Part shown: positions 1-31,039 of the stretch, one piece after another
How the letters are laid out: each line of letters starts with the position of its first letter
Position numbering within the stretch: position 1 is the first letter of the stretch
From: Escherichia coli
GTDB lineage: Bacteria; Pseudomonadota; Gammaproteobacteria; Enterobacterales; Enterobacteriaceae
Length of the DNA stretch: 64,000 nt
Strand: one strand, 5' to 3'
Assembly: GCF_044324785.1 (NCBI RefSeq)
Contig: NZ_CP172127.1
The notes under the pieces: generated by a model
Seen by the model: the letters and a program-made list of their open reading frames with translations, nothing else
Told to the model about the DNA's origin: nothing
Database searches by the model: none
Program-made: the position numbers and the translations under genes

Positions 1-1
1 T

Positions 2-7544: not shown

Positions 7545-7769
7545 ATGGGGCCCCAAATGATTACATACACTACACGGGACGGTGACCGTCTCGATCAGAT
7601 CTGCCTTGCTGTCTACGGGAGAACAGCAAAAACGACAGAAACCGTGTTATATCAGGTTTTAAATTACGGCGTAACGGATATGTGTGCCGTGTTTCGTGCA
7701 GGAGAAAAAATTGTTTTACCAGAAATCGACCCCGAACCGGCTAAAAAAGAAACGCAATTATGGGATTGA
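7545..7769 (+). CDS. Tail protein X-like (LysM-like); a start at 7557 (MITYT...) is also possible
   Basis: Sequence ...DRLDQICLAVYGRT...ETVLYQVLNYGV...AGEKIVLPEI... resembles P2 gpX as I remember it. Confidence 0.65.
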   Translation: MGPQMITYTTRDGDRLDQICLAVYGRTAKTTETVLYQVLNYGVTDMCAVFRAGEKIVLPEIDPEPAKKETQLWD

Positions 7770-7772
7770 TGA

Positions 7773-8816
7773 ATGAGTGATTACGTAAATACTGGCGTGG
7801 AAGCATGGAAGCCCAATTTTTATATATCTGCTGATAATGAAAACATCACGGATAAAATAAGAAAAGGTTTGATCAATATCACGCTCACAGATTATGGTGG
7901 TTCGAGTAAACAGACAGACGAATTACGCGTAGCAATCGTTTCTGAAACTCTGAAAATTCCGGCCCGCGGAGTAAAAATCAGTATTGGGCTCGGTTTCGGT
8001 AATCAGATAATTGATAAGGGTGTATACATCGTTGATGGTGCGAGCAGTGGCGGTGAACCCCGGGTAGTTGATTTCACAGCAAAAGCAGCTCCGATGAACG
8101 CATCAAAAGGCTCTCCGACAGTTCAGAGCAAAAAAACTCGCTCCTGGAGCGACGTCACTGTCAGCAATATCGTTGCAACAATAGCGAGCGATAACGGGCT
8201 AAAACCTCGCGTATCAAAGCGGTTTGCAGACAACATTATCACGCAGCTCGATCAAGTCGGCGAGTCAGATATGCACCTGATGTCGCGGCTCGCAACGAGA
8301 TTCGATGCGGTGAGTAAACCCGCGGGCGGGTACTGGATATTCCTGCCGCGCGGCGCGGGCGAATCTGTTAGCGGAGCACCGCTTCAGCACTACACGCTCA
8401 CGCGTCGTGATAACTCAAGCTGGGGTTATTCGAGAAATGGACAAAACGGTGATAGTGGCGGAGGTGGCGAAAATGCGGAGCCAACGTATTTGATCAAATA
8501 TCACGATACAGCAACGGGGCAGATCAAAGAATTGCGTACGGGCAGTGGCGGCGATCCTGTAATCGAGTGGCCGGCAGTGGAGCCGTCGCTTGATGCAGCG
8601 AAAGAAGCTGCGCCAGGACTCAAGGGCGGTGCAGCTAAAAAAGAGTTCTCCATGACTTACACGACGCCCGCGACGCTCGATTTAGTATCGCTGACTGCAG
8701 AATGCAAAGTCACAACACAAGGATTCGGGACAGAGGAGGACCGAGACTGGACAATCAATACGTTGACGCTGACGCTGGCTGAAAACGGATTCTCTGCGCG
8801 ACTGTCGCTGGAGTAA
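7773..8816 (+). CDS. Tail protein D-like
   Basis: 347 aa immediately after the X-like gene, as in R-type pyocin/phiCTX-like clusters. Confidence 0.65.
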   Translation: MSDYVNTGVEAWKPNFYISADNENITDKIRKGLINITLTDYGGSSKQTDELRVAIVSETLKIPARGVKISIGLGFGNQIIDKGVYIVDGASSGGEPRVVDFTAKAAPMNASKGSPTVQSKKTRSWSDVTVSNIVATIASDNGLKPRVSKRFADNIITQLDQVGESDMHLMSRLATRFDAVSKPAGGYWIFLPRGAGESVSGAPLQHYTLTRRDNSSWGYSRNGQNGDSGGGGENAEPTYLIKYHDTATGQIKELRTGSGGDPVIEWPAVEPSLDAAKEAAPGLKGGAAKKEFSMTYTTPATLDLVSLTAECKVTTQGFGTEEDRDWTINTLTLTLAENGFSARLSLE

Positions 8817-8821
8817 ATGAA

Positions 8822-10648
8822 ATGGCAATAATATCGGGTGTATACGCAAATGGGGTCGGCGAGCCCGTTGTCGGCGTTCAGTTAGTATTAACAGCACGGG
8901 TCACGAGTTCACGCGTAGTAATGACCACTGTTGTAGAGCAAGAAACAGGCGCGGCGGGTGAGTACAAATTTGATATGAAGCCCGGAGTTTACGTTGTCAC
9001 TGCTAGTGCGGCATATCTCGGCGTGATTAACGTTAACCCGGACAGTGTTGACGGCACGTTAAACGACTATTTGACTAATTTTAGCGCAGACGAACTGACG
9101 CCAGCTGCGTTGGCGGAGATCCAGGAACTCGTTGCCACAGCACAAGCCGCTGCCAGTGTTGCCAGCGCCGCCGCAACGGAGGCCAGGCAGAATGCCGCCG
9201 CCGCCGCTGCTGCTGCGCAGATTTCGACGGCAGCGGCAGGGAGCGCCAGATTTGAGAATTTTGACGAAATTATCAATGTCAATACAACAGCAATGCTGGA
9301 GCTGGAAAAACCGGAGGTGTTAGATCCGGATATTGCAATAACTATCACAGAGACGATTAATTATAACTATATTGGCCCGGTAAACGGATTTTGCGACGTT
9401 ACTAGCCCGCTTGAATATAAAATTCAAATGTACGCCTACACAACAGGCGAATATTTTAACGGCGAAACAAATTTAACAGCGGACGGGAAGTTTTCTTTTA
9501 AACGTTCCTGGGCTGGTGCAAAACAATTCAGATTGGTGCGCGTAGCAGATAGTAAATGGATCACTACGCTGGAATACCCGCTGTGTATTCGCAGTTACTG
9601 GATGCCCGCTGACGCCGATCCCGAGGTAGTCAGCGTCATGAAAGACCGTTGCTACACATATGATCAGGCGTGCGCGGCGCTGGCTCTCATGGCGCAGAAT
9701 CACGAGGCGGTAGAGCGTTATGTTACGGGTCTGTGCGCCCTGGTGGGTGAAAACGGCGGCATTAAATTTTTTGTTAACCGGCTGTCCGCACAGTCCTCCC
9801 GCGAATATTACCGCACGGGTAACGCGGCGTGGGTGTTGTACGCCCTGGCATTCTATCTGAGCAAATACCCTACCGGCAGTAACGCTGAGTTAGCGCGCGC
9901 GAAATTAAACGCCGGGCTAACCTGGCTGGACGGTCTGAAGGTTGACGCCAGCGGCGACCCGCGCCACGGCTTATACATGGGCGGCAACGGTAAATATCTG
10001 GAGGACGGATCATTTGATCCGAATTATGTTGCGACCTGGTGCGCGCTCGAGCACAACGTTGATATTTATTTTTTATTCGAACTCGTTGGACGGTTAACCG
10101 ATTTTACCGGATACGAACTGCGAGCCACCACGCTGGCTGCAAATATCGTGGAAAAATTCTGGATTGAGAGCGAGGGGCGATTCCGGCAGGGCGTGCACAT
10201 TGACGGCCCGGACAACGCCGCAGCGCTGGATCAATCGAGTTGGGGCGGGATATTCGCAGTAAAAGCCGCGCCGGAGTTGGCGGAAAAATGCCGCCGTTAT
10301 ATGGAAAGATTCCGGTTCGGCACACTGGAGAGCACCGGTTATACACCGTATCACCCGGACTACGGATACAGCGGCCATAGCCGTGGCGTGTGGACCGAGG
10401 GTACAGCGGGTGTAGCACTATTCGAACGTGCGCTAGGGAACGAGCAGAGAGCTACCGATCTGATCGCGGGATTAAAACCACTGCGTAATGAATACGGCTA
10501 TCGCGACTCATGCGACGATAAAAAATACGACACACTGCCGGACTGGCCGTCGACTACAAACACCGCTTGGGTTATTTTAACATGCAAGCCGGCGGGGTTT
10601 TGGTGCGTAGATTTCCCGGTATTGGACGTTGGTATCGTCAGGTACTGA
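8822..10648 (+). CDS. Side-tail-fiber-like protein: lambda Stf-like N-terminal domain, Ala-rich linker, and an unassigned ~400-aa C-terminal domain
   Basis: N-terminus MAIISGVYANGVGEPVVGVQLVLTARV...GEYKFDMKPGVYVV...GTLNDYL parallels the lambda Stf N-terminus. An AAAAAAAAQISTAAAG stretch follows, then a Trp/Tyr-rich globular region with no transmembrane or signal sequence. Confidence 0.6.
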   Translation: MAIISGVYANGVGEPVVGVQLVLTARVTSSRVVMTTVVEQETGAAGEYKFDMKPGVYVVTASAAYLGVINVNPDSVDGTLNDYLTNFSADELTPAALAEIQELVATAQAAASVASAAATEARQNAAAAAAAAQISTAAAGSARFENFDEIINVNTTAMLELEKPEVLDPDIAITITETINYNYIGPVNGFCDVTSPLEYKIQMYAYTTGEYFNGETNLTADGKFSFKRSWAGAKQFRLVRVADSKWITTLEYPLCIRSYWMPADADPEVVSVMKDRCYTYDQACAALALMAQNHEAVERYVTGLCALVGENGGIKFFVNRLSAQSSREYYRTGNAAWVLYALAFYLSKYPTGSNAELARAKLNAGLTWLDGLKVDASGDPRHGLYMGGNGKYLEDGSFDPNYVATWCALEHNVDIYFLFELVGRLTDFTGYELRATTLAANIVEKFWIESEGRFRQGVHIDGPDNAAALDQSSWGGIFAVKAAPELAEKCRRYMERFRFGTLESTGYTPYHPDYGYSGHSRGVWTEGTAGVALFERALGNEQRATDLIAGLKPLRNEYGYRDSCDDKKYDTLPDWPSTTNTAWVILTCKPAGFWCVDFPVLDVGIVRY

Positions 10649-10676
10649 CAATTATAATTTTTGGAGTTTTTTATAC

Positions 10677-11096
10677 ATGGTCGTTAAAAATATTCTTGCC
10701 TTTGGGATTATGTGTGCGCTTGCTGGTTGTGCAACCAAGCCAGTCTCAAACGAGCAGGCTACTCCCGTTCCAGAAAAACAGGTAATCAATAGCGCAATAC
10801 TCGAAAAAAGAGATGGGACAGGAGAGGTGATCATCAAGCGTGATTCGGGTTTCTTTGGGAGCGCGTGCTTTTCCCGTGTTTATGTTGATGGTAAAGAGGT
10901 GGCAGATTTAGGTACAGCTCAGAAAGTCGTTGTATACCCAACGATTGGTGATCATGTCTTCAGCGCGTGGCCAAAAGGAGTATGTGGTGGTGGCATGAGT
11001 GAGCAGGCGGGCAAGGTGACAACAGATCGTACTTTGATGTATCGCATAGGTTACGGTTCAAACGGTGAATATGGCATTCACCCAACTGCGTTTTAA
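10677..11096 (+). CDS. Small predicted outer-membrane lipoprotein (prophage cargo)
   Basis: GGAG about 10 nt upstream of the ATG at 10677. Signal peptide MVVKNILAFGIMCALAGC with lipobox LAGC; the residue after Cys is Ala (not an Asp inner-membrane retention signal); several Cys in the mature part. Confidence 0.55.
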   Translation: MVVKNILAFGIMCALAGCATKPVSNEQATPVPEKQVINSAILEKRDGTGEVIIKRDSGFFGSACFSRVYVDGKEVADLGTAQKVVVYPTIGDHVFSAWPKGVCGGGMSEQAGKVTTDRTLMYRIGYGSNGEYGIHPTAF

Positions 11097-11253
11097 CTGT
11101 GTTGGGTATGCGATTTTATTCGCATACCCCTTAGGGCAATTGACGATACTTCCAAATGACCATTATTTTACGTGTGGCCTCGATGTTGCGCACATGAGAG
11201 TTCTATATTCTTTCAAACAGGATTATCCCATTGATTTAATTATACTTTCGTAT

Positions 11254-11983: not shown

Positions 11984-12634
11984 TCAATGAGACATCATCT
12001 CCTCGACCACTTCTTCGCTACTCAACTGATAGGGATAATACGTTGGCCAGTTTTCCATTTCATTTAATAAAGATTGCTGTGAATCATTACCCATAAAAAT
12101 GTGAAAATGAGATGATTTTCGTGGTGCAATTATATGATCGCTAAATTGAATATATTTAGGGGCTTTGCTTTCAGGATCTTTACATTCGAATAAGTAACGA
12201 ACGCCTTTCTTGCCTGATTTATAGGTGAGTATTTTGTATCCATCATAATCATATTTACAGGATGTTGTTTCATTATTTCTATGGAATTCAACAATGCCGT
12301 CCTCAATGCCAATCATCTCGATATCTGTCACATAACCTTTGCGATAATAATCTTTAATTTCAGCAAATGTTTTAGTTTTATCTGCATCCGCTTTCTTCTG
12401 AAAGACGGGGTCAAGTTTGCCACTTTGCAGTAAAGGATAAACGGATTGCCAGACTCCATCCCAGTCACTGAGCGTTCGGTTTTGTACATTGGCATCATCA
12501 AAAACACCATTAGCAGCTTTTTGTTCGACCTCTGTTAAGGGTTTGCCGTGTGAGTGATGACCATGCGAAAAGGCAGGAGCGCTAACAATAAAGACACCTA
12601 AAGCAACAGCCAGTTTATGAAGACGAATCGCCAA
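11984..12634 (-). CDS. zinT: Zinc/cadmium-binding periplasmic protein ZinT (YodA)
   Basis: 216 aa with signal peptide and His-rich HGHHSHG motif; recognised as E. coli ZinT. Confidence 0.9.
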
Positions 12635-12668
12635 AACAGTTTCCTCCAGAGTTAATGTATATGATGTG

Positions 12669-12689
12669 TAATGTTATATTGTAACATAT
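12669..12689. promoter_or_regulatory. Candidate Zur box upstream of zinT
   Basis: Near-palindrome TAATGTTATATTGTAACATAT about 35 bp upstream of the zinT start codon. Confidence 0.55.
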
Positions 12690-12812
12690 AACAAAATGCA
12701 ACAACTCTTAGGAGACAAGAGAATAGTTATCTCAGGTGTGCTTATCTATCTTATTGAAATAAAATAAATTATGTCGATGATTTGAGGTTGATGACAAACG
12801 AAACATAACTTG

Positions 12813-12860
12813 ATGTGATCTGCGTAGGCCGGATAGGGCGCTCGCGCCGCATCCGGCAGG
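12813..12860. repeat. REP (repetitive extragenic palindromic) element
   Basis: GCGTAGGCCGGATAGGGCGCTCGCGCCGCATCCGGCAGG is the typical E. coli REP consensus type. Confidence 0.7.
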
Positions 12861-12890
12861 GATAACGCGTACTTTGTCGGCAATATGAAG

Positions 12891-13526
12891 TTATACAGAT
12901 AATTTGTTGTGAACCTGCTTGCGTAACCGGTTAAAAAGGGAACGCAACTTCTTATACCGTAAGGCTAAAAGCAGTACAGCCAGCCCAGCGTAGATGAGTG
13001 GCTGCGGTGAAATAATCTTCACTGACCACAGATAATGTACTGGGGCAAGGATCGCGACAAGATAGACGAAGTTATGCAACTGTTGCCAGTTTTTGCCGAG
13101 TTTTCGCTGCATCGCCTGGGTTGAAGTGAACGCTAAAGCAAGCAAAATTATCCAGCTGATAATACCTAACGTTAAATAAGGCCGGGTAATTAACTCCTTG
13201 CCTAATAACGCCAGATTATTCACGCCCAGCTCCAGTAATGCGTAACTGGTTAAATGCAGTGTCGCCCAGGCAAAGCACCATAAGCCTAACAGGCGGCGAG
13301 TGCGTATCAATAACGGCTGTTTTGCGTAGCGTGCCAGAGGTGTGATTAACAAGGTCGCCAGCAAAAATTTCAGTGCAGTGCGACCAGTAAAATGCTGAAT
13401 ATCTTTCACCGGATCGGCACCCAATCCACCGTGATTAATCGCCCAGACCAGCCAGAGAAACGGCAACAATCCGGCAAGATGCAGGCAAACTTTCAGCCAT
13501 GTCACCTGTTTTGCTGTCAGACGCAT
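12891..13526 (-). CDS. msrQ: Methionine sulfoxide reductase heme-binding subunit MsrQ (YedZ)
   Basis: 211-aa polytopic membrane protein directly downstream of msrP; recognised. Confidence 0.9.
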
Positions 13527-14537
<1,011 letters not shown>

Positions 14538-14639
14538 TCACACTTTTTTGTCTTTAGCCAGCAAGAGCCGTTTACTGTTAATCTGTCAGGGAGTCACCTC
14601 CCTAACAGTAGCAGAGATCTGCTTTTACATATTTATGCA

Positions 14640-15053
14640 TTAACTGCCACGATAGGTTGAATACCCATATTGGCTAAGTAATAAAGGCACATGATAATGC
14701 TCGTTCACTTTATTAATATGAAATTCAACGGGGATCTCAGGGAAGAAACTTTCAAGATTTTGTTTCTTGAAATAGTCCCCGGTTTTAAATACGACACGGT
14801 AATCGCCCGTAGTTGCAGTTTGCTCGGGCCACAGTGCCTTAATTCGTCCATCCTTATCTGTTTTGGCGGTATTAAGTTGTAACCAGCCGTTATCCGCTTT
14901 CTTTTCAAGAGTGACTGTCACGTCGGCAGCGGGTTTTCCTGTTTGCTGGTTCAAAATGTGCACGCTAAGAATGTTTTGTTGTGCAGCATAGACCAAAGAA
15001 GGTAATGAAAATGCAGCCGTTACTACGGAGAGTACTAAATAACGCTTTAACAT
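14640..15053 (-). CDS. hiuH: 5-hydroxyisourate hydrolase (transthyretin-like) HiuH (YedX)
   Basis: 137 aa with signal peptide and C-terminal YRGS, the transthyretin-family signature. Confidence 0.9.
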
Positions 15054-15122
15054 GTTTATATCCTTGTCATGTGAATGAGTTTTGAGGATAGCGAAAAAGC
15101 GTCCAGGGTAACCTTACAGAAG

Positions 15123-15140
15123 CATTACAATTTTGTAATG
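15123..15140. promoter_or_regulatory. Perfect 18-bp palindrome in the hiuH-hprR divergent region; candidate HprR/CusR-type box
   Basis: CATTACAATTTTGTAATG lies between the divergent hiuH and hprR starts. Confidence 0.6.
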
Positions 15141-15185
15141 AACCAGGCTGTTTCTATAACATATGATTTATGGCATATTATTTTC

Positions 15186-15857
15186 ATGAAGATTCTACTT
15201 ATTGAAGATAATCAAAGGACCCAGGAATGGGTAACGCAGGGGCTTTCCGAAGCGGGTTATGTCATTGATGCCGTTACTGATGGCAGAGATGGGCTTTATC
15301 TTGCGCTGAAGGATGATTATGCATTGATCATTCTGGATATTATGCTTCCGGGTATGGATGGCTGGCAGATCTTACAAACGTTAAGAACGGCAAAGCAAAC
15401 TCCTGTTATTTGCCTTACTGCAAGAGATTCTGTCGATGACAGAGTCAGAGGGCTGGACAGTGGGGCAAATGATTATCTGGTAAAACCTTTTTCATTTTCT
15501 GAGTTGCTGGCAAGGGTTCGGGCACAATTAAGGCAACATCACGCTTTGAATTCAACATTAGAAATCAGCGGCTTAAGAATGGACTCTGTTAGTCAAAGTG
15601 TGAGCAGGGACAATATCAGTATTACACTGACGCGCAAGGAGTTTCAGTTACTTTGGCTACTGGCCTCCAGAGCTGGCGAAATTATACCCAGAACGGTTAT
15701 TGCGAGTGAAATTTGGGGAATCAACTTTGATAGTGATACCAATACGGTGGATGTCGCCATTCGCAGGCTCCGCGCAAAAGTTGATGATCCTTTTCCTGAA
15801 AAGCTAATCGCCACAATCCGGGGGATGGGCTATTCATTCGTAGCGGTAAAAAAATAA
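15186..15857 (+). CDS. hprR: Two-component response regulator HprR (YedW)
   Basis: OmpR-family receiver plus winged-helix domains (MKILLIEDNQRT...); start chosen at MKILLIEDN. Confidence 0.9.
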   Translation: MKILLIEDNQRTQEWVTQGLSEAGYVIDAVTDGRDGLYLALKDDYALIILDIMLPGMDGWQILQTLRTAKQTPVICLTARDSVDDRVRGLDSGANDYLVKPFSFSELLARVRAQLRQHHALNSTLEISGLRMDSVSQSVSRDNISITLTRKEFQLLWLLASRAGEIIPRTVIASEIWGINFDSDTNTVDVAIRRLRAKVDDPFPEKLIATIRGMGYSFVAVKK

Positions 15858-17215
15858 TGAAAAGATTATCTATAACCGTCCGTTTAACCTTGCTTTTTAT
15901 ATTGCTGCTGTCTGTTGCTGGCGCTGGAATTGTCTGGACTCTCTATAATGGCCTGGCAAGTGAGTTGAAATGGCGCGATGATACAACACTCATTAACCGG
16001 ACAGCGCAGATCAAGCAGTTGTTAATTGATGGGGTAAATCCAGATACGTTACCTGTGTACTTTAACCGGATGATGGATGTTAGTCAGGATATCTTGATCA
16101 TTCATGGTGATGGCATCAATAAAATTGTTAACCGGACGAATGTCAGTGATGACATGTTAAATAACATACCTGCTACTGAGACAATCAGCGCAGCTGGCAT
16201 TTACAGAAGCATTATTAATGACACTGAGATAGATGCTTTACGAATTAATATTGATGAAGTTTCGCCATCATTAACGGTTACTGTGGCTAAATTGGCTTCA
16301 GCCAGACATAACATGCTTGAACAGTATAAAATTAATAGCATTATAATTTGCATTGTCGCCATTATACTGTGCTCAGTATTAAGTCCGTTGTTAATCAGAA
16401 CGGGGTTACGAGAGATCAAAAAGTTGAGTGGTGTAACGGAAGCGCTGAATTATAACGATAGCCGAGAGCCTGTTGAGGTTAGCGCATTACCGAGAGAACT
16501 AAAACCTCTTGGGCAGGCGTTGAATAAAATGCACCAAGCCTTAGTCAAAGATTTTGAACGCCTAAGTCAATTTGCTGACGATCTCGCTCATGAACTTAGA
16601 ACGCCAATTAATGCATTACTGGGTCAGAATCAGGTTACGCTCAGTCAAACCAGAAGTATCGCTGAATATCAAAAAACAATTGCCGGAAACATTGAAGAGC
16701 TGGAAAATATTTCGCGGTTAACAGAGAACATACTGTTTCTTGCCAGGGCAGATAAAAACAATGTTTTGGTGAAACTGGATTCGCTTTCTCTCAATAAGGA
16801 AGTCGAAAATTTGTTGGACTATCTTGAATACCTTTCAGACGAGAAAGAGATTTGCTTTAAGGTCGAGTGCAATCAGCAAATCTTTGCGGATAAAATTTTA
16901 CTGCAACGAATGTTATCGAATCTTATTGTTAACGCTATTCGATATTCACCAGAAAAATCGCGCATTCAGATAACCAGTTTTCTTGATGCCAACGGCTCTC
17001 TTAATATTGATATCGCCAGCCCTGGAACGATAATTAATGAGCCTGAAAAACTCTTCCGTAGATTTTGGCGGGGAGATAATTCGCGTCATTCCGTAGGTCA
17101 GGGACTTGGTCTTTCTTTAGTCAAAGCGATTGCCGAATTGCATGGGGGAAGTGCTACGTATCACTATCTCAATAAGCATAACGTGTTCCGAATTACGTTA
17201 CCGCAAAGAAATTAA
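15857..17215 (+). CDS. hprS: Sensor histidine kinase HprS (YedV)
   Basis: 452 aa with two TM segments, HAMP-like region and H-box (AHELRTPIN); start overlaps the hprR stop. Confidence 0.9.
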   Translation: MKRLSITVRLTLLFILLLSVAGAGIVWTLYNGLASELKWRDDTTLINRTAQIKQLLIDGVNPDTLPVYFNRMMDVSQDILIIHGDGINKIVNRTNVSDDMLNNIPATETISAAGIYRSIINDTEIDALRINIDEVSPSLTVTVAKLASARHNMLEQYKINSIIICIVAIILCSVLSPLLIRTGLREIKKLSGVTEALNYNDSREPVEVSALPRELKPLGQALNKMHQALVKDFERLSQFADDLAHELRTPINALLGQNQVTLSQTRSIAEYQKTIAGNIEELENISRLTENILFLARADKNNVLVKLDSLSLNKEVENLLDYLEYLSDEKEICFKVECNQQIFADKILLQRMLSNLIVNAIRYSPEKSRIQITSFLDANGSLNIDIASPGTIINEPEKLFRRFWRGDNSRHSVGQGLGLSLVKAIAELHGGSATYHYLNKHNVFRITLPQRN

Positions 17216-17322
17216 TATATGTCTTCAGTACGCCTTAAATTAACCATGAAAAAACGCAGCTACGTCGTGAGTATTAACGTGGCTGCGATTGATTATGCGC
17301 TTACATTACAATGTAACAGGGA

Positions 17323-18174
17323 TTAACTCGAGTAAGCGGCCAGCATTTCCTGCGCCGCCAGTTTACCCAACGCATTCGCTGCGAAAGGACTGTCGCCGGT
17401 GAGAACTTTACGGTCCTTATGTACTCGTCCGGTGATGTCGTCATTAATGATGTTCATGCCCATTTTCTTCAGCTCTTCGCCGAAGTACCAGGTGAGATGA
17501 CCCGGCATATAGCCTATCTCTGGCGTTTGTTTGTCTGCGGCGTCTGGGAATGCGCAAATGGAATAACCATTCAGTGGGTTATCGCCGTGGCGAAGCGCCA
17601 GAAAAGCCGCCGGGCCGTGGCAAAGGGAGATAACAAAACGGTCATTTTTGATTGCCCACTGTAAAGCGGCAGCTACGTCCTGGCTTTCAGGTAAACCAAT
17701 AAGTGCGCCATGACCACCAGGAACAAAGATTGCTGCATATTCGCTGTCAGCGTTGAGGCTGGCGACAACATCCGCGAGTTTCTTCGGATTGCGGAACAAC
17801 GATTTATGCTGCTCAAAGAATGGCATTACTTTTTCATCTTTGTGCGGCATAGCCCAGTATTCAAACTTGGTCATCAGACCGGAAATGGTCGCCACTTCGA
17901 ATTCGAAACCTGCAGCATGGAGATGATACAACGGCAGCAACGTTTCAATCGGATGGTTACCGGTCGAGAACAGTTTTCCGTTATCGGTCGGCAAATAACG
18001 TTCGTCCGCGGCGATCACCAGAATTTTATGTTTACCGCGATACGGTTTTGGATAGTCCACGCCATCAAGATCAGAGACAGGACTGGTATATTGGCTAAGC
18101 GAATATTCTGAAGGGAAGAATGCATTATCTTCAGCAATATCGACCTGCGGATTTTTACTTGTTTGAACAGTCAT
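17323..18174 (-). CDS. hchA: Hsp31 glyoxalase/chaperone HchA
   Basis: 283 aa; recognised as E. coli HchA (DJ-1/PfpI family). Confidence 0.9.
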   Translation of the reverse strand: MTVQTSKNPQVDIAEDNAFFPSEYSLSQYTSPVSDLDGVDYPKPYRGKHKILVIAADERYLPTDNGKLFSTGNHPIETLLPLYHLHAAGFEFEVATISGLMTKFEYWAMPHKDEKVMPFFEQHKSLFRNPKKLADVVASLNADSEYAAIFVPGGHGALIGLPESQDVAAALQWAIKNDRFVISLCHGPAAFLALRHGDNPLNGYSICAFPDAADKQTPEIGYMPGHLTWYFGEELKKMGMNIINDDITGRVHKDRKVLTGDSPFAANALGKLAAQEMLAAYSS

Positions 18175-18683
18175 AGTGTATTCCTTATTGTTGCTTAGTT
18201 AGGGTAGTCACTATATTTGCGACTGAGCTGGTCGCTATTTTTAACCAGGCTGGAAAATTGAGTCAATATATCGAAAGCGGTAGTCGGCGGGTGTAAGTAT
18301 GTAATGATGATGCTGCACTGGTGTTGAATATTATTCACGCCAAATTTTCCTTATTGAGCTACGTCGTCGCAAGTGGCCTCAATGATTTTAGACCATTATC
18401 AAAGGTACGGGGCGGCGGGGAGAGATTTAGTTATGTGGAATATTATGGTACTGATGAATATTTATATCCCGGATTGGCAGAGAAAAAGCTTTTTTCATGC
18501 ACTATTTTTGCAAATATTTCTATATGGGAGGCGGTTTTGTTGCGGATTAATTCATAAAGAAATGCATTTGGGTGTTGGCTGGAAGAGACGCTAGTAGATT
18601 TTATTGAGCCAGGAGGGGCGGGGTAATGTGCTGTATCGATATGCTTTGGCAATTGCGTGTGCCGCAGATGGAGATGAAATGCC

Positions 18684-18722
18684 AATAAAAAAGCCTGAGT
18701 TCGATGAGGGACGAACTCAGGC
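18684..18722 (-). terminator. Rho-independent terminator downstream of the porin gene
   Basis: Hairpin GCCTGAGTTCG...CGAACTCAGGC, followed on the minus strand by TTTTTTATT. Confidence 0.6.
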
Positions 18723-18765
18723 TATTGTTATGTTTTACAGTAACACGCCGCAGCGCGTTGGCTGA

Positions 18766-19881
18766 TTAGAACTGGTAGACGATACCAACTGCAAACTGGT
18801 CATCAGCTGCTGCGCCAGTAATGGCGGCGTCATCTTTATCCAGCATGTTGAATTTGTATGCAGTATAAACGTTCATGTTCTTATTGAAGTAGTACCAGGT
18901 ACCAACTTCAATGTAGTTCACACGGTCAGCGTCAACATATCTATGTCCAGGTACACCTTTGATATCTTTACCTTTAGAATACACATAACCTAAGGACGGA
19001 CGCAGACCAAAGTCGAATTGATACTGAACAACCGCTTCAAAGTTCTGGGTTTCATTGATAAGTTGATCACGCATTATTGTATTGCCTTCTCGATCGGCAA
19101 CACCTGTATCAATAGAACCCGGAGTCATATTACGAGTTTCACCGTACATTACAGCTGCGTAGACATTGTTCGCGTCATACTTTGCAGCCAATGACCACAG
19201 TTCAGCATTTGAACCGTTTCCATCGGCAACTTGATCGTTGGTGCGATCAGATTTGCTATATGCACCAACGATACCAAAACCATTGATGTTATAGTCTACA
19301 GACAACGCATAGCCGTCACCATTTTGTTTCTTAGTGCTACGGTTGCTGTTTTTGCCTTGGTACTGAATCGCAAAATCAAGACCATCAACCAGGCCAAAGA
19401 AATCATAGTTACGGTAGGTTGCAACACCGTTGGTACGACCATTCATGAAGTTGTCAGCGGAAGCCCAGGAATCGCCACCCCATTCAACTAACATATCGGT
19501 ATAAGCTGCGGCATCATAAGCAACACCGTAGTTACGGCCATAGTCAAATGATCCTAACTCGTTATATTTCAAACCGGCGAAGGTTAAACGGGTTTTTTCC
19601 TGGTTTTCACCTTCAGGTTTGCTGGCGTCGAGGTTGTATTCAAACTGACCGAAACCAGTCAGTTCGCTGGTGATTTGGGTTTCACCTTTAACACCGAAAC
19701 GAGCATAGGAGGTATCTTCGTTTTCGCTGTTATTATCATCAGTATTTGACCAGATGCGTTCGCCAACCATCTTGCCGTAGAAATCAACTTTATTGCCATC
19801 TTTATTATAAATTTCAGCCGCATTTGCTGCGCCAGCAACTAATAACGCCGGGACCAGCATTGCCAGAACTTTTCTTTTCAT
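18766..19881 (-). CDS. yedS: OmpC/OmpF-family outer-membrane porin, apparently intact (YedS-like)
   Basis: Signal peptide [21 protein letters not shown], then [10 protein letters not shown], and C-terminal ...VGIVYQF typical of general porins. One uninterrupted ORF at the K-12 yedS position. Confidence 0.85.
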
Positions 19882-20192
19882 TATGTATTCCCTTGTGATT
19901 ATAATCTTCATGAATATATCAATAAGTGCCGTTATCCAAAAAAAAGCACATTTGGATACTATTCTATGAAGTTCATTTTATTTTAAGGATTACATGTAAC
20001 AAATGTATTTAAAAGATTTCAAAATGTTTCTAATCTATTTAATATAATTCAGAATTATGAATTCTAGATATAAATATTCATGATAATTATGAATATATAT
20101 CAATATGTTATGAGTTGATTGGAAAGATAGGAAGTATCAATGATTGCGGCGCTAAACGGCTGATGTGATCACGCGCACATTAATGAAGGCAT

Positions 20193-20220
20193 AAAAAAAA
20201 GCCGGCATCATGCCGGCCCA
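20193..20220 (-). terminator. Strong rho-independent terminator (minus strand) in the yedS-yedR intergenic region
   Basis: GC-rich hairpin GCCGGCATCATGCCGGC, followed on the minus strand by eight T. Confidence 0.6.
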
Positions 20221-20429
20221 AAAAATATAAACAAGACGATAAAAGGCTAATAACGGGGTTATCATGACACAGAAATCAAAAAAGGTATAATTGAATTCGC
20301 TGCTAATATATTGTTTAGGTGAATTAATAAAACCATTACCATAGATAATAATAAATCTTCATTGCTGTTTTTCCGGTAATTATTGCCGTTGCGCAAAAAT
20401 TATCTATTTGTTCAAAAAATGATTGAGTC

Positions 20430-20813
20430 TTGACTGGCTCATCCAATGTGGAAAAATGTGACTTTTATCACATAATAGTACTAAGTCTGAATTTTCCGGG
20501 TTATCTCAAAATGGAATACGGTTCGACAAAGATGGAAGAGAGACTCTCTCGCAGCCCTGGCGGCAAATTGGCTTTGTGGGCTTTCTATACATGGTGTGGC
20601 TATTTTGTCTGGGCAATGGCGCGTTACATCTGGGTGATGAGCCGGATCCCCGAAGCCCCCGTGTCGGGATTTGAAAGCGATTTAGGCTCTACCGCGGGAA
20701 AGTGGTTAGGGGCACTGGTCGGCTTTTTATTTATGGCACTGGTCGGGGCATTGTTAGGCAGCATTGCCTGGTACACCCGACCTCGTCCCGCACGTAGCAG
20801 ACGCTATGAATAA
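20430..20813 (+). CDS. yedR: Inner-membrane protein YedR
   Basis: Small two-TM protein at the conserved position upstream of yedJ; exact start uncertain. Confidence 0.65.
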   Translation: MTGSSNVEKCDFYHIIVLSLNFPGYLKMEYGSTKMEERLSRSPGGKLALWAFYTWCGYFVWAMARYIWVMSRIPEAPVSGFESDLGSTAGKWLGALVGFLFMALVGALLGSIAWYTRPRPARSRRYE

Positions 20814-20852
20814 AAACTGCTAAGGTTGCGACTCTTTGGCAACGGAGCGCGT

Positions 20853-21548
20853 ATGGACGTACAACACTGGCAGGCACAGTTCGAAAACTGGTTGAAAAAC
20901 CATCATCAGCACCAGGACGCGGCCCATGACGTATGTCATTTTCGCCGTGTCTGGGCTACGGCACAGAAGCTGGCGGCAGATGACGATGTCGATATGCTGG
21001 TGATTTTAACCGCCTGTTATTTTCACGATATTGTGATCCTGGCGAAAAATCATCCACAACGGCAGCGTTCTTCAATCCTGGCGGCAGAAGAAACGCGTCG
21101 CCTGCTCCGTGAAGAGTTCGTGCAATTTCCGGCGGAGAAAATTGAGGCCGTTTGTCATGCCATTGCCGCGCACAGTTTCAGCGCGCAAATCGCCCCCTTA
21201 ACAACGGAAGCTAAAATCGTCCAGGATGCGGATCGGCTGGAAGCCCTGGGGGCGATTGGCCTGGCGCGCGTGTTTGCCGTTTCAGGGGCATTGGGCGTGG
21301 CGCTGTTTGATGGCGAAGATCCGTTCGCACAGCATCGCCCGCTGGATGATAAACGCTACGCGCTGGATCATTTCCAGACTAAGTTGCTGAAGCTACCGCA
21401 AACCATGCAAACCGCAAGAGGCAAGCAGCTGGCGCAGCACAACGCGCAATTTTTAGTCGAGTTTATGGCGAAGCTCAGTGCCGAACTGGCGGGGGAGAAT
21501 GAAGGTGTCGATCACAAGGTGATAGATACGTTTTCACCCGTGGGCTGA
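20853..21548 (+). CDS. yedJ: HD-domain phosphohydrolase YedJ
   Basis: HD motif (CYFHDIV); start chosen at MDVQHWQ. Confidence 0.8.
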
Positions 21549-21614
21549 GCGCGTGGCCCTAAATGGCTGTAATTATGTTAACCTGTCGGCCATCTCAGAT
21601 GGCCGGTTAAATCT

Positions 21615-23033
21615 ATGCAGGAAAATATATCAGTAACCGATTCATACAGCACCGGGAATGCCGCACAGGCAATGCTGGAGAAACTGCTGCAAATTTATGA
21701 TGTTAAAACGCTGGTGGCGCAGCTTAATGGTGTGGGTGAGAATCACTGGAGCGCGGCAATTTTAAAACGTGCGCTGGCGAATGACTCGGCATGGCACCGT
21801 TTAAGTGAGAAAGAGTTCGCCCATCTGCAAACGTTGTTACCCAAACCACCGGCACATCATCCGCATTATGCGTTTCGCTTTATCGATCTATTTGCCGGAA
21901 TTGGCGGCATCCGTCGCGGTTTTGAATCGATTGGCGGACAGTGCGTCTTTACCAGCGAATGGAACAAACATGCGGTTCGCACTTATAAAGCCAACCATTA
22001 TTGCGATCCGGCGACGCATCATTTTAATGAAGATATCCGCGACATCACCCTCAGCCATAAAGACGGCGTGAGTGATGAGTCGGCGGCAGAACATATTCGT
22101 CAACACATTCCTGAACACGATGTATTACTGGCCGGTTTTCCTTGTCAGCCATTTTCGCTGGCTGGCGTATCGAAAAAGAACTCGCTCGGGCGGGCGCACG
22201 GTTTTGCCTGCGATACCCAGGGCACGCTGTTCTTTGATGTGGTGCGCATTATCGACGCGCGTCGTCCGGCGATGTTTGTGCTCGAAAACGTCAAAAACCT
22301 GAAAAGTCACGATAAAGGAAAAACGTTCCGCATCATCATGCAGACGCTGGACGAACTGGGCTATGACGTGGCTGATGCAGAAGATAACGGGCCAGACGAT
22401 CCGAAAATCATCGACGGCAAACATTTTCTGCCGCAGCACCGTGAACGCATCGTGCTGGTGGGTTTTCGTCGCGATCTGAATCTGAAAGCCGATTTTACCC
22501 TGCGTGATATCAGCGAATGTTTTCCTGCGCAGCGAGTGACGCTGGCCCAGCTGCTGGACCCGATGGTCGAGGCGAAATATATCCTGACGCCGGTGCTGTG
22601 GAAGTACCTCTATCGATATGCGAAAAAACATCAGGCGCGCGGTAACGGCTTCGGTTATGGAATGGTTTATCCGAACAATCCGCAAAGCGTCACGCGTACG
22701 TTGTCTGCGCGTTATTACAAAGATGGCGCAGAAATTTTAATCGATCGCGGCTGGGATATGGCAACGGGTGAGAAAGACTTTGACGATCCGCTGAATCAGC
22801 AACATCGCCCACGTCGGTTAACGCCTCGGGAATGCGCGCGTTTAATGGGGTTTGAAGCGCCGGGAGAAGCGAAATTCCGCATTCCGGTTTCGGACACTCA
22901 GGCCTATCGCCAGTTCGGTAACTCGGTGGTCGTACCGGTCTTTGCCGCGGTGGCAAAACTGCTTGAGCCAAAAATCAAACAGGCGGTGGCGTTGCGTCAG
23001 CAAGAGGCACAACATGGCCGACGTTCACGATAA
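21615..23033 (+). CDS. dcm: DNA-cytosine C5-methyltransferase Dcm
   Basis: 472 aa with the F-G-G motif ([11 protein letters not shown]), PCQ catalytic motif ([11 protein letters not shown]) and ENV motif (FVLENVKNL). Confidence 0.95.
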
Positions 23034-23484
23034 GGCCACACGCAGCAAAAATATGCGCGCGATTGCCACGCGTGATACGGCGATTGAGAAGCGCCTCGCC
23101 AGTTTGTTAACCGGGCAGGGACTGGCGTTTCGCGTTCAGGACGCGGATCTCCCCGGACGCCCGGATTTTGTCGTTGATGAATATCGCTGCGTGATATTTA
23201 CCCACGGCTGCTTCTGGCACCATCATCACTGCTATCTGTTTAAAGTGCCTGCGACTCGAACCGGGTTCTGGCTGGAGAAGATAGGTAAAAATGTTGAGCG
23301 CGATCGCCGCGATATCAGTCGCTTGCAGGAACTCGGCTGGCGCGTATTGATTGTCTGGGAGTGTGCGTTACGTGGGCGCGAGAAGCTGACGGATGAAGCG
23401 CTTAGCGAGCGTCTGGAAGAGTGGATCTGCGGCGAAGGAGCCAGCGCGCAGATCGACACGCAGGGGATTCATTTACTCGCTTGA
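23014..23484 (+). CDS. vsr: Very-short-patch repair endonuclease Vsr
   Basis: 156 aa starting [17 protein letters not shown]...; its 5' end overlaps the dcm 3' end in another frame, the classic dcm-vsr arrangement. Confidence 0.9.
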
Positions 23485-24393
23485 TGCGTCCTGAATAACG
23501 GGCGCAACTACGGGTTTGGCCGGGAAGAGATATTTTCCCAACGTGACCAGTACCACCGCGAAGACAATCACGCCGAGCGCCAGCCATTCAATCTTCGACA
23601 GCGTCTCTCCGCCCAGTCCCGTACCCAGCAAGACCGCGACCACAGGGTTAACGTAGGCGTAGCTGGTGGCGAGAGCCGGACTGACGTTGCGGATTAAATA
23701 CATATAAGCGTTAATGGCGATAATCGAACCAAACAGCGCCAGATAGCCGACCGCAAGGAAGCCTGAAAGGGAAGGGAGCGCCGTCAGTTTTTCACCCGCA
23801 ATCATCGACGCGATCATTAACACCACGCCTGCCGCAAGCATCTCAATCGCACCCGCCATCATCCCTACAGGTAAGGTAATGCGCGAGCCATAAACTGAGC
23901 CAAACGCCCAGCTAATCGAGCCGATTAAAATCAGAATCGCGCCCCACGGATTGCCGCTTAAATTTCCACCGCTATTGAGCATGATGATTCCGGCAAGTCC
24001 AATGGCGATACCCACCCATTCCAGTTTGCGCGTTTTAATGCCAAACAGGCGGCTGAAGCACAGGGTAAAGAGGGGCACGGTTGCAACCACTACGGCGGCG
24101 ATGCCGGAAGGAACATTTTGATGTTCGGCAACCGTTACCATGCCATTACCGACAGCCAGCAATAACAGGCCAATCAGCGCGGCATTGAGCAGCGGACGTA
24201 GCGGGGGGAGCTTGTGTCCGCGCAGTAGCAAAAATGCCAGCAATAAAATACCGGCTGCCAGGAATCGCACGCCCGCCATCATTAACGGCGGCCAGCTTTC
24301 CACGCCAATCCGAATGACAAAATAGGTTGAGCCCCAAATGATATACAACGCAAACAGCGCGCCAAAAAGCGGTAACAACTGGCGGAAACGCAT
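23473..24393 (-). CDS. yedA: EamA-family (DMT) transporter YedA
   Basis: 306-aa polytopic membrane protein; position. Confidence 0.85.
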   Translation of the reverse strand: MRFRQLLPLFGALFALYIIWGSTYFVIRIGVESWPPLMMAGVRFLAAGILLLAFLLLRGHKLPPLRPLLNAALIGLLLLAVGNGMVTVAEHQNVPSGIAAVVVATVPLFTLCFSRLFGIKTRKLEWVGIAIGLAGIIMLNSGGNLSGNPWGAILILIGSISWAFGSVYGSRITLPVGMMAGAIEMLAAGVVLMIASMIAGEKLTALPSLSGFLAVGYLALFGSIIAINAYMYLIRNVSPALATSYAYVNPVVAVLLGTGLGGETLSKIEWLALGVIVFAVVLVTLGKYLFPAKPVVAPVIQDASSE

Positions 24394-24565
24394 AATCCCT
24401 CACGGTGGAAATAAAAAGGTGGTTCATAGTAAACGTGAAAATCATTCTGCTGGCGAGAGATATAATTGCACTTGATTGTTAAAAAAATGTTGACCTGTGA
24501 AGCAAGTATCAGAGCTGCCGTTTTTGCTTCATACTTACACCCTTCAACAATAAAAATGAGAGGGA

Positions 24566-25483
24566 ATGCTTTTGGCCGGGAGTAGTTTACTGACGTTGCT
24601 CGATGATATCGCCACACTGCTGGACGATATTTCCGTGATGGGCAAACTGGCGGCGAAGAAAACCGCCGGTGTATTAGGGGATGACTTATCGCTCAATGCG
24701 CAACAAGTTTCAGGCGTGCGGGCCAACCGGGAACTTCCCGTGGTCTGGGGCGTGGCGAAAGGATCGCTGATCAATAAAGTGATTCTGGTGCCGCTGGCGC
24801 TGATCATCAGTGCGTTTATCCCGTGGGCGATTACGCCACTGTTGATGATTGGCGGCGCGTTTCTCTGCTTTGAAGGGGTAGAGAAAGTGCTGCATATGCT
24901 GGAGGCGCGTAAACATAAAGAAGATCCGGCGCAGAGTCAGCAGCGTCTGGAGAAGCTGGCGGCGCAGGATCCGCTGAAGTTTGAAAAGGACAAAATAAAA
25001 GGGGCGATTCGTACCGATTTTATATTGTCTGCGGAAATCGTCGCCATCACGCTGGGGATTGTGGCAGAAGCGCCGTTGCTTAATCAGGTGCTGGTGCTTT
25101 CAGGCATCGCGCTGGTAGTGACCGTGGGCGTCTACGGTCTGGTAGGGGTTATCGTTAAGATTGATGACCTGGGGTATTGGTTGGCGGAAAAATCCAGCGC
25201 GCTGATGCAGGCATTAGGTAAAGGGTTATTGATTATCGCGCCCTGGTTGATGAAAGCGTTATCGATTGTCGGCACGCTGGCGATGTTCCTCGTCGGCGGC
25301 GGGATTGTGGTACATGGTATTGCGCCGCTGCATCACGCCATTGAACATTTCGCCGGGCAGCAAAGTGCAGTGGTGGCGATGATATTACCGACTGTTTTAA
25401 ATCTGATTCTTGGATTTATCATCGGCGGCATCGTGGTGCTGGGAGTGAAAGCAGTAGCGAAAATGCGCGGTCAGGCACATTAA
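24566..25483 (+). CDS. yedI: DUF808 inner-membrane protein YedI
   Basis: 305 aa; recognised. Confidence 0.85.
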
Positions 25484-25561
25484 TACTCGCACTGGCTATT
25501 ATGCAAAATTCGCCATCTTCAACTAAGGTGAACAAGTTTCACTCGAAAAAAGGAGGCGAGT

Positions 25562-25744
25562 ATGAGCTTTATGGTTAGTGAGGAAGTTACGGTTAAAGAG
25601 GGCGGCCCGCGGATGATTGTCACCGGATACTCCAGCGGTATGGTTGAGTGTCGTTGGTATGACGGTTACGGGGTCAAGCGGGAAGCTTTTCATGAAACCG
25701 AGCTTGTTCCAGGGGAGGGGAGTCGTCCTGCGGAAGAAGTTTGA
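25562..25744 (+). CDS. yodC: Small protein YodC
   Basis: 60 aa; recognised, with conserved position. Confidence 0.8.
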   Translation: MSFMVSEEVTVKEGGPRMIVTGYSSGMVECRWYDGYGVKREAFHETELVPGEGSRPAEEV

Positions 25745-25914
25745 AAGGGTATCATTAACACCAGGCCGGATCACATCCGGCCTGGTGTGCCAATGCCTGC
25801 AATGAATGATAGTCGCGTCTTATCATGCCACCATTATAAAATTATCGCTGTTTTGCGGTACGTTATCGCCGGGTTATGCCAGAATCATAAAAAAGCAGGT
25901 TGGGAGTCGTCAGG

Positions 25915-28439
<2,525 letters not shown>

Positions 28440-28618
28440 TTACCAGGATGATTCTCAAAACAGCACAAATTATCAAAGATGATTTTTTCGGGAGCGATCC
28501 CGTTGACGCCAGAGCCACCAAGGGGTGACGCGCGTCACATTTCTATTCATAAGTAGCGTTAATCATTCATATCACGAATATTTTCTTGTCAGCGAAAAAA
28601 ATTGCGGATAAGGTGATG

Positions 28619-28708
28619 AACACATCAGATTTCCTGGTGTAACGAATTTTTTAAGTGCTTCTTGCTTAAGCAAGTTTCATCCCGACCCCCTCAGGGTCGG
28701 GATTTTTT
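28619..28708 (+). ncRNA. dsrA: DsrA small regulatory RNA
   Basis: AACACATCAGATTTCCTGGTGTAACGAATTTTTTAAGTGCTTCTTGCTTAAGCAAGTTTCATCCCGACCCCCTCAGGGTCGGGATTTTTTT matches DsrA as I remember it, including the terminator hairpin and U-tail. Confidence 0.9.
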
Positions 28709-28718
28709 TATTGTGCAT

Positions 28719-28946
28719 TCAACGATTCACTTCAGAGACGCTGAAGTCATGAATATCCAGTTCGAAGGCATCCGCCAATTCACGCCATGTATGATATTCA
28801 CGTCCATCGACGCTAACGTGTTCAGAATCGTTCTGGCTGCGATGAACTTCGCTTTCGCTAATTTCATTGATCGCCGCCAGCAGGGCATCGACATCGACGC
28901 TGACCTCACGTTTTGCGGTATCGCTGTACTCTTTTGCGGTTTTCAT
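28719..28946 (-). CDS. yodD: Stress-induced small protein YodD
   Basis: About 75 aa (MKTAKEYSDTAKREV...); recognised; start approximate. Confidence 0.8.
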   Translation of the reverse strand: MKTAKEYSDTAKREVSVDVDALLAAINEISESEVHRSQNDSEHVSVDGREYHTWRELADAFELDIHDFSVSEVNR

Positions 28947-29018
28947 CATCTTTCCTCGCAACCGTTACTCTGTTGTTGCCGCCAGTCGTTAAGTCCGCCT
29001 GGCATCTCTTAAGTATAG

Positions 29019-29297
<279 letters not shown>

Positions 29298-29340
29298 TCT
29301 AATTCAGCCTGACTGGTGGGAAACCACCAGTCAGAATGTG

Positions 29341-29964
29341 TTAGCGCATGTTGACAAAAATACCATTAGTCACATTATCCGTCAGTCGGACGACATGGTA
29401 GATAACCTGTTTATTATGCGTTTTGATCTTACGTTTAATATTACCTTTATGCGATGAAACGGTCTTGGCTTTGATATTCATTTGGTCGGAGATTTGAATG
29501 GTACCCTGACCTGCCATCCACATTCGCAACATACTCGATTCGGTTCGGCTCAATGATAACGTCGGCATATTTAAAAACGAGGTTATCGTTGTCTCTTTTT
29601 TCAGAATATCGCCAAGGATATCGTCGAGAGATTCCGGTTTAATCGATTTAGAACTGATCAATAAATTTTTTCTGACCAATAGATATTCATCAAAATGAAC
29701 ATTGGCTATTGCCATAAAAACGATAAATAACGTATTGGGATGTTGATTAATGATGAGCTTGATACGCTGACTGTTAGAAGCATCGTGGATGAAACAGTCC
29801 TCATTAATAAACACCACTGAAGGGCGCTGTGAATCACAAGCTATGGCAAGGTCATCAACGGTTTCAATGTCGTTGATTTCTCTTTTTTTAACCCCTCTAC
29901 TCAACAGATACCCGGTTAAACCTAGTCGGGTGTAACTACATAAATCCATAATAATCGTTGACAT
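29341..29964 (-). CDS. rcsA: Capsule synthesis regulator RcsA (LuxR-family)
   Basis: 207 aa with C-terminal LuxR-type HTH; recognised. Confidence 0.9.
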
Positions 29965-30253
29965 GGCATACCCTCACTCAATGCGTAACGATAATTCCCC
30001 TTACCTGAATATTTCATCATGACTAAACGGAACAACATGGGTCACCTAATGCGCCACTCTCGCGATTTTTCAGGCGGACTTACTATCCCGTAAAGTGTTG
30101 TATAATTTGCCTGGAATTGTCTTAAAGTAAAGTAAATGTTGCGATATGTGAGTGAGCTTAAAACAAATATTTCGCCGCAGGAGTATCCTGGAAGATGTTC
30201 GTAGGTATTATTTTTCGGATAATCCTTAGGATAACATGATAAACGTTACGGAA

Positions 30254-31039
30254 TTATATTAATGGCAATTCACTAATAATATCAGCCAGCAAATTAAACA
30301 TCTCACTGAATAAATGTTCGCAAAAAGGCGCAATTAACGGCATTAATGCCGCCATTAAAGAGATACCGACAGTCAGAGTTAATGGAAATCCAATAACAAA
30401 AATGGATAATTGCGGAGCCATACGATTAAGTAAACCTAATGCCAGATTCAGGGTCAGCAGCAGAGTAATGAGCGGTAACGCCAGCATCAGCCCGTTAAGG
30501 AAAATCAAACTCCCTGCTTTGGTGAGTGCCAGAAACGCATTGCTGTTCAACGGTTCGCCACCAATTGGCAGGGTGTGAAAGGTATCGACCAGCAGTGAAA
30601 TCAACCATAAATGACCGTTAAATGTCAGGAACAGCAGTAACGCCAGCATATCCATGATACGCGCTAAAACGGGCATATTGAGATGGCTGGCCGGATCGAC
30701 AAACGTCGCAAATGACAGCCCCATTTGCAGACCGATAATTTCACCAGCGGTTCGCACAGCGGCAAAGGCAAATTGCATGGTAAAACCAAGCGCAATGCCG
30801 ATCAGGATCTGCTGCACGGCCAGCCACAGAGCAAAGAACGAAAAAACAGGAACATCGTTGGCAGGTAATGATGGGGCAATAGCGAACGTGATCATCATTG
30901 CCAGACCCAGTTTTACCCGTTTCGGCACGCTGCGTTCGCTCAGAATTGGCGCGGTAGAAATGAGCGCCAGCACGCGCAGTAACGGCCAGAAGTACAGACT
31001 TAGCCAGGAAAGCCATTGATCGCTTGTCACCTGCAACAT
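30254..31039 (-). CDS. fliR: Flagellar export apparatus protein FliR
   Basis: 261-aa membrane protein, last gene of the fliL operon. Confidence 0.9.

Follow-up and report, generated by a model that had tools for sequence, protein, structure and literature searches.

The stretch of Escherichia coli DNA analysed here (64,000 nucleotides, hereafter the window) carries an intact porin gene in the slot that is occupied in K-12 by the yedS pseudogene. Judged by alignment, this gene is the positional counterpart of yedS, yet represents a different and old sequence lineage, and at least four deeply diverged porin versions sit between rseX/drpB and hchA in E. coli. We hold with good confidence that the gene encodes a functional general diffusion porin that would normally be silenced by H-NS, a 'quiescent' porin, whose export, trimerisation, pore activity, silencing and conditions of expression are presumed. 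At the same time, the gene is ordinary and widespread, its product being an already catalogued RefSeq protein found in hundreds of genomes.

The porin gene and its product

The coding sequence lies on the minus strand at 18766..19881 and comprises 371 codons plus TAA, as read from the list of open reading frames and the translation, together with Pfam, identity to a RefSeq protein, and AlphaFold2 and Foldseek results. It starts with the ATG at 19881 and ends with the TAA stop at 18768-18766, and its translation contains no internal stops or frameshifts, which disposes of the missed lesion that the first-pass annotation had allowed for. A second in-frame ATG at 19911, 30 nt upstream, would give a 381-aa reading, ten residues longer; the MKRKVL start is the one used in the RefSeq annotation of the identical gene and in all homologues. 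The precursor has 371 residues and the predicted mature porin 350 (about 39 kDa, pI 4.5). The protein is identical to WP_000824355.1, and RefSeq/PGAP names proteins of this type just 'porin'.

Residues 27-371 match positions 1-337 of the 337-position Porin_1 profile (PF00267; E = 2e-118, 396 bits with a cut-off of 23.7), and this complete coverage, together with the uninterrupted reading frame, bears out the earlier description of a full-length general porin. Scores against the NCBIfam models of OmpF (NF007446; 450, cut-off 583), OmpC (NF007841; 417, cut-off 484) and PhoE (NF007544; 414, cut-off 599) are all below the cut-offs, so no named equivalog tells what the pore properties of the protein are.

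The signal peptide and the terminal Phe that had been noticed from the letters of the sequence are both present and align with those of OmpF and OmpC. The 21-residue Sec signal peptide, encoded at 19819..19881 on the minus strand, is identical in every allele class at the locus and nearly identical to that of OmpC; it has a cleavage context of the OmpC/OmpF type, and the alignment with these two porins places the predicted cleavage at ANA/AE. The C-terminus reads ...GIVYQF. The gene also has its own terminator, as had been claimed: the terminator scan gave a terminator-like hairpin at 18723..18692 on the minus strand, beginning 43 nt past the stop codon, with a 12-bp stem including 7 G-C pairs, followed by TTTTTTATT, the T-run tail being given in the scan as TTTTTTATTGG.

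In regard to the pore, all OmpF constriction residues are conserved in the alignment (K16, R42, R82, R132, D113, E117, G119, G120 and D121 in OmpF numbering). The basic cluster K16/R42/R82/R132 lies opposite the acidic L3 residues D113/E117, the GG(D) turn of L3 is present, and the L3 motif LVEWGGD is the same in OmpK35. The nearest solved structures by sequence are OmpK35 (9hn1, E = 9e-145; 5o77), then OmpF, and then OmpC. The AlphaFold2 model, built on a 26-sequence alignment (pLDDT 74, pTM 0.72), is predicted to have the 16-stranded beta-barrel porin fold; it superimposes on OmpK35 5o77 with a TM of 0.93 and on OmpF with a TM of 0.88-0.89, and its top Foldseek matches were OmpK35, OmpF and OmpC (TM 0.86-0.93, probability 1.00). 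Relative to the 357-aa sister allele found in other strains, protein alignments place a 14-residue insertion at residues 259-272 (19066..19107, minus strand), and OmpK35 and the Citrobacter porin are gapped over nearly the same stretch. In the model, these residues are predicted to lengthen a beta-hairpin between strands, which by analogy with other porins is probably an external, surface-exposed loop.

By sequence, the window porin seems to resemble most the OmpK35-type (OmpF-class) pores. It shares the L3 motif and the charged constriction residues with Klebsiella OmpK35 (PDB 5o77, 9hn1) and Enterobacter aerogenes Omp35 (5o78), from which it differs in being 62-66% identical (66% to the OmpK35 type), in having 13-14 extra residues in one loop or hairpin, and in being encoded at the yedS locus, not at the ompF locus, while E. 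coli keeps its own ompF elsewhere. With the K-12 proteins OmpC (57% identity), PhoE (58%), OmpN (58%) and OmpF (60%), it has in common the family, the fold, the type of signal peptide, the pore-lining residues and the C-terminal YQF, whereas the identity of 57-60% and the scores under the OmpF, OmpC and PhoE cut-offs set it apart from them.

The yedS locus in K-12 and in other enterobacteria

The gene lies between hchA (17323-18174, minus strand) and rseX/drpB, which is the slot of the K-12 yedS pseudogene, with hprS (15857-17215) on the hchA side and with drpB, yedJ and dcm as further neighbours; the gene order matches the hprRS-hchA-yedS-rseX-drpB-yedJ-dcm-vsr order of K-12. The pseudogene status of the K-12 locus was stated correctly by the first-pass annotation, as yedS of MG1655 (b4496, 2034051-2035243) is so annotated and its translation runs into an in-frame TAG after FFG, followed by a frame change.

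The DNA alignment with K-12, spanning positions 17200-21600 of the window, shows how far the correspondence reaches. Identity is 97-100% in hchA, drpB and yedJ, and 100% from about 20070 down to about 19810, a stretch that includes the 5'UTR and the signal-peptide codons, themselves 100% identical. From 19810 to about 18790, that is, in the mature part, it falls abruptly to 50-75% with indels, and past the stop codon it is back at 85-100%. The possibility that the window gene is K-12 yedS without its lesions was rejected, as its mature part is at 50-75% nucleotide and 59% protein identity.

Strain PD4 has an intact yedS of the K-12 type (397 aa), which at the nucleotide level is 97.5% identical to the pseudogene of K-12, and the comparison with it bears on the label 'yedS-like'. 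The label stands for the position, the 5' region and the signal peptide, which are as in K-12, but not for the mature part, which at 59% identity to the PD4 protein is no closer to it than to OmpF, OmpC, PhoE and OmpN at 57-60%. The alignment to yedS of K-12 and to intact YedS, which had been suggested as a check, thus disclosed no lesion in the window gene, yet revealed a diverged version. Since the identity is the same as that to the paralogues, knowledge of K-12-type YedS/OmpS1 is not simply transferable to the window porin. The two have in common the rseX/drpB-hchA slot, the 5'UTR, the promoter-proximal region, the signal peptide and the superfamily, and they differ in length (371 aa against 397 aa), as the window porin is without the long loop insertions of the K-12 type.

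K-12-type YedS is closest to OmpN (72%) and OmpC (66%). Depending on the source, such proteins go under 'porin OmpC', 'outer membrane protein yedS' or 'outer membrane protein S1'; in PGAP, the name is 'OmpC' for the K-12 type and 'porin' for the window type. One gene table equates yedS with Salmonella ompS1 (PMC2731931), and it is to K-12-type proteins of E. coli, not to those of the window type, that the label 'outer membrane protein S1' is attached. As 'yedS' covers several proteins that share only the promoter and the signal peptide, caution is needed in annotation and in resistance and phage-receptor work, and what is found with one class of allele ought not to be carried over to another.

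Outside E. coli, the window protein is 73% identical to a porin of Klebsiella oxytoca, 77% to porins of Citrobacter and of Enterobacter hormaechei, and 85% to a porin of E. fergusonii; the protein search found no non-Escherichia homologue above 77-78%. The Citrobacter, Enterobacter and E. fergusonii genes are in the same place, downstream of yedI-yedA-vsr(-dcm)-yedJ(-drpB), and the sequences suggest that the window version belongs to the lineage found at this locus in those three groups. Non-Escherichia relatives of the K-12 type were also sought by protein search, and the matches listed were taken up by E. coli, E. albertii and Shigella.

In E. fergusonii GCA_002965935.1, a second porin gene (369 aa) and a TrkH-family gene lie between the yedS-locus porin and hchA (6663-9688 of the inspected locus, L025). 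This second porin, with a signal peptide of another kind that looks NmpC/Lc-like, shares 55-65% identity with each of the sequences compared; together with the adjoining TrkH-family gene it may be an insertion of prophage-derived DNA. Derivation of the E. coli allele classes from a tandem pair of the E. fergusonii kind was rejected, since the additional porin gene there represents another paralogue.

Allele classes and their history

The loci of 13 other strains were inspected for the form and intactness of the porin gene, and 10 of the 13 were intact, which makes K-12 the exception. The claim that the gene is intact here, unlike in K-12, is therefore correct, but this state is not peculiar to the strain. 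The 371-aa form is intact in isolate K12a (WP_000824355.1, 100%) and in SF-173 (one substitution, 99.7%), while in PK8566 the 371-aa allele, 100% identical at the nucleotide level, is split by IS1. Intact genes of other classes encode 357 aa in A11 (90% identical to the window protein), 352 aa in C11, ATCC 25922 and VE-T10 (68%), 387 aa in SW070917 (62%), and 392-404 aa, the K-12 type, in PD4, DEF10 and 19KM1863 (59-60%); K-12-type pseudogenes are those of K-12 (stop and frameshift) and O157:H7 NE1127 (frameshift). Given the IS1 in PK8566 and the pseudogenes in K-12 and an O157:H7 strain, the gene is dispensable in some lineages.

Class frequencies were estimated in 5426 complete E. coli genomes, with one gene per family as query and a query coverage of at least 80%. 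The 371/357-aa family was found in 1626 genomes, the 352-aa family in 1850, the K-12 family in 1662 and the 387-aa family in 681, where the four counts overlap slightly and their sum exceeds 5426. The 371/357-aa family is accordingly present in up to ~30% of complete genomes; 799 of the 5426 match the window gene at ≥99% nucleotide identity, and the 90%-identity protein cluster of the window porin holds 1321 sequences.

The dN/dS of the window gene is 0.07 with E. fergusonii, 0.10 with Citrobacter and Enterobacter, 0.13 with the 357-aa allele, 0.19 with the 352-aa class and 0.27 with the K-12 type, and such values against every relative compared indicate purifying selection for a working protein. 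The dS to the nearest sister allele in E. coli, that of 357 aa, is already 0.49; with the other classes it comes close to saturation at about 1.2, and with the K-12 type it is saturated at 1.16. Values of 0.49 and about 1.2 look far above the usual within-species divergence of E. coli.

These results bear on the reading of the gene as a functionless relic that has so far escaped a disabling mutation, its intactness being without biological meaning. Such a relic would fit the independent inactivations seen elsewhere (the stop and frameshift in K-12, the frameshift in O157:H7 NE1127, the IS1 in PK8566) and a gene that is probably silent in culture. It would have to be reconciled, however, with a dN/dS of 0.07-0.27 maintained across very large synonymous distances (dS 0.5 to >1), with the conservation of every pore-lining residue, with a promoter and signal peptide invariant across classes, with the 10 intact loci among the 13 of other strains, and with an allele at least 99% identical in 799 genomes. 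Conservation, intactness and frequency of this order are not expected under neutral decay, and we consider the relic very improbable; a working porin gene remains the preferred reading.

Several observations point to exchange of the coding region between strains. The mosaic E. coli protein P0011 combines an N-terminal half of the window class with a C-terminal half of the 352-aa class, which by its sequence indicates recombination inside the porin gene. Compared with isolate K12a, the window has 0-2 differences per 250 nt in the coding region and 9-15 in the adjoining intergenic DNA. In PK8566, the coding sequence is 100% identical apart from the IS1 and the flanks are at 95.5-96.6% overall, and in SF-173 the gene is 99-100% identical to that of the window and the flanks 75-97%. 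A conserved coding region in diverged flanks would fit a gene-sized recombinational exchange of a coding 'cassette', and stronger constraint on coding than on intergenic DNA would also contribute to the contrast.

The coding lineages at the locus are as unlike each other as the named porin paralogues, with a synonymous divergence of 0.5 to >1. It is possible, and we propose it tentatively as somewhat short of an even chance, that the rseX-hchA locus is a 'cassette' polymorphism, in which at least four ancient coding lineages (371/357, 352, 387 and 392-404 aa) are swapped from strain to strain downstream of one invariant promoter and signal peptide, each under purifying selection. If true, this would point to a surface protein that, though normally silent, has long been under balancing or frequency-dependent selection, with phages, colicins or antibody as conceivable agents, and the allele structure of the locus is perhaps worth a small population-genetic study. 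In the library searched, no description of paralogue-level lineages behind one promoter at the yedS locus was found.

Alternatively, the window-type coding region could be a recent import from another enterobacterial genus, having replaced a K-12-type yedS through homologous recombination in the conserved flanks, as opposed to an old polymorphism kept within Escherichia. In its favour are the sharp boundaries of divergence, just past the signal-peptide codons and near the stop codon, the closest relatives at the same locus in other genera, the identical allele in flanks that differ by 2-5% between strains, and the mosaic P0011. On the other hand, the non-Escherichia homologues do not exceed 77-78%, and the E. 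fergusonii porin reaches 85%, so no recent donor is identified, while a frequency of up to ~30% in E. coli and an internal diversity reflected in the dS of 0.49 between the 371-aa and 357-aa forms fit a long residence in the species. We therefore regard recent import as unlikely.

As to the strain itself, no complete RefSeq E. coli genome exceeds 98.7% identity over the 20-kb region 12000-32000 of the window, although many genomes have the porin gene of that region at 99.7-100%; the lineage of the source strain seems to have few or no members among the complete E. coli assemblies.

Upstream region, expression and other features of the window

The 5' regulatory region and 5'UTR, delimited by alignment and composition profile at 19882..20193 on the minus strand, have a G+C content of 27-29%. 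In an alignment of eight strains that takes in three coding families (371/357-aa, 352-aa and K-12-type), the signal-peptide codons and some 190 nt immediately before the ATG show no variation beyond a few single-base differences. The promoter scan gave a weak sigma-70-like match at 20002..19975, to be taken as a lead only, and overall 9 such matches compared with 7.6 ± 3.2 in shuffled sequences, which is not above chance, and no promoter is claimed. A CRP-like palindrome, TGTGA-N6-GCACA, can be read from the sequence at 20164..20179, not assigned to either strand, between the rseX terminator and the porin gene, and it is conserved with small changes in the strain alignment; CRP gave an in vitro footprint at the homologous K-12 site, 2033766, which is entered under yedS (PMC12871828).

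The small RNA gene rseX (20194..20283, minus strand; Rfam RF01401, 97.8 bits with a gathering score of 50) is directly upstream of the porin gene in the same orientation and has its own terminator at 20219..20199 in the terminator scan. Positions 20284-20400 of the window and the first ~40 nt of rseX occur in two haplotypes, one shared by the window and isolate K12a, and the other found in K-12, A11, C11, ATCC 25922, SF-173 and PD4; the window sequence is identical to K-12 there in 40-48 of 60 positions. This haplotype is independent of the porin class, as SF-173 combines the porin allele of the window with the other rseX haplotype. The small gene drpB, next to rseX, carries a pseudogene annotation in three inspected strains, with an internal stop in VE-T10 and PK8566 and a frameshift in O157:H7 NE1127; the pseudogenes are at 1072-1353, 1070-1350 and 570-851 of the inspected loci L006, L007 and L013, respectively.

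Expression of the window porin under standard conditions is doubtful, considering the AT-rich upstream region, which is identical to that of K-12, where rseX is H-NS-silenced, and the quiescence of Salmonella ompS1. In K-12, H-NS represses rseX, which becomes detectable only once hns (and stpA) are gone (PMC8313858). The ompS1 gene of Salmonella encodes a quiescent porin, with H-NS/StpA as repressors and LeuO as inducer, and ompS1 mutants are attenuated in mice (PMC4264507). The likeness to OmpS1 of Salmonella enterica concerns the equation of the two names in the gene table and an AT-rich upstream region of the kind silenced by H-NS/StpA and de-repressed by LeuO in Salmonella. By analogy with these systems, the window porin is most likely a working gene that would normally be silent or weakly expressed, and we infer its silencing by H-NS from the K-12 rseX data and from Salmonella.

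In the mechanism that we propose, the gene would encode a 16-stranded, trimeric-type general diffusion porin of the OmpF/OmpC/PhoE superfamily, whose precursor would be exported by Sec and cleaved after ANA, with insertion by the BAM machinery through the C-terminal Phe. As all versions share the AT-rich promoter region and signal peptide, H-NS/StpA would most likely keep the gene largely silent under laboratory conditions, and it would be switched on only in particular conditions, such as LeuO-type anti-silencing or loss of the major porins. Once expressed, the porin would give small hydrophilic solutes, beta-lactams and carbapenems among them, a further non-specific way into the cell, and it would present a variable surface toward phages and antibodies.

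A constitutively expressed third major porin beside OmpF and OmpC, changing permeability and phage or antibody recognition of this strain in ordinary conditions, could also be envisaged, as the stronger form of the additional porin suggested in the first-pass annotation. The gene is intact and under purifying selection, and some porin of unstated locus that distantly resembles K-12 YedS can be produced in culture, as a protein 'with 50% homology' to K-12 YedS was detected in the surface proteome of an O26:H11 strain (PMC9731836). Still, the promoter region is the same, very AT-rich one as in K-12, the adjacent rseX is undetectable there unless hns is deleted, and Salmonella ompS1 is quiescent in the laboratory, all of which makes constitutive expression improbable and argues for the normally silenced porin.

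MicF-dependent control of yedS is said to have been reported by Warner et al. 2013. Direct pairing of MicF with the 5' region of the window porin was rejected after a duplex calculation, which gave -11.5 kcal/mol compared with -13.4 ± 2.9 kcal/mol for shuffled sequences and -27.4 kcal/mol for the ompF control. Two later papers, both citing Warner et al. 2013, name yedS as mediating carbapenem resistance (PMC11267920) and call it 'active' in a mode of carbapenem resistance (PMC4048246). With an intact, active yedS already linked to carbapenem susceptibility in a clinical isolate, the practical weight of the present gene is small. Nevertheless, a porin-loss genotype (ompF/ompC) is to be read alongside the allele at the yedS locus and its intactness.

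Elsewhere in the window, positions 1-11253 are missing from the corresponding K-12 region and hold a contractile-tail phage module, with genes for the baseplate, two tail-fibre genes, a tail-fibre assembly protein, the tail sheath, other tail proteins and a lipoprotein. The module abuts a truncated copy of the tRNA-Ser gene serU, of which the part matching K-12 2043468-2043528 remains, from position 11254, and at which ARAGORN found no tRNA; the arrangement resembles that at the end of a prophage inserted into serU. The fliD-fliC interval at 48588-51809 gave no megablast alignment to K-12, while both sides are 97-98% identical; it contains open reading frames of 496 aa (minus strand) and 497 aa (plus strand) and presumably represents a different flagellin (H-antigen) allele. 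Finally, the DsrA small RNA gene is present at 28619-28705 (Rfam, 102.5 bits), as expected from synteny with K-12.
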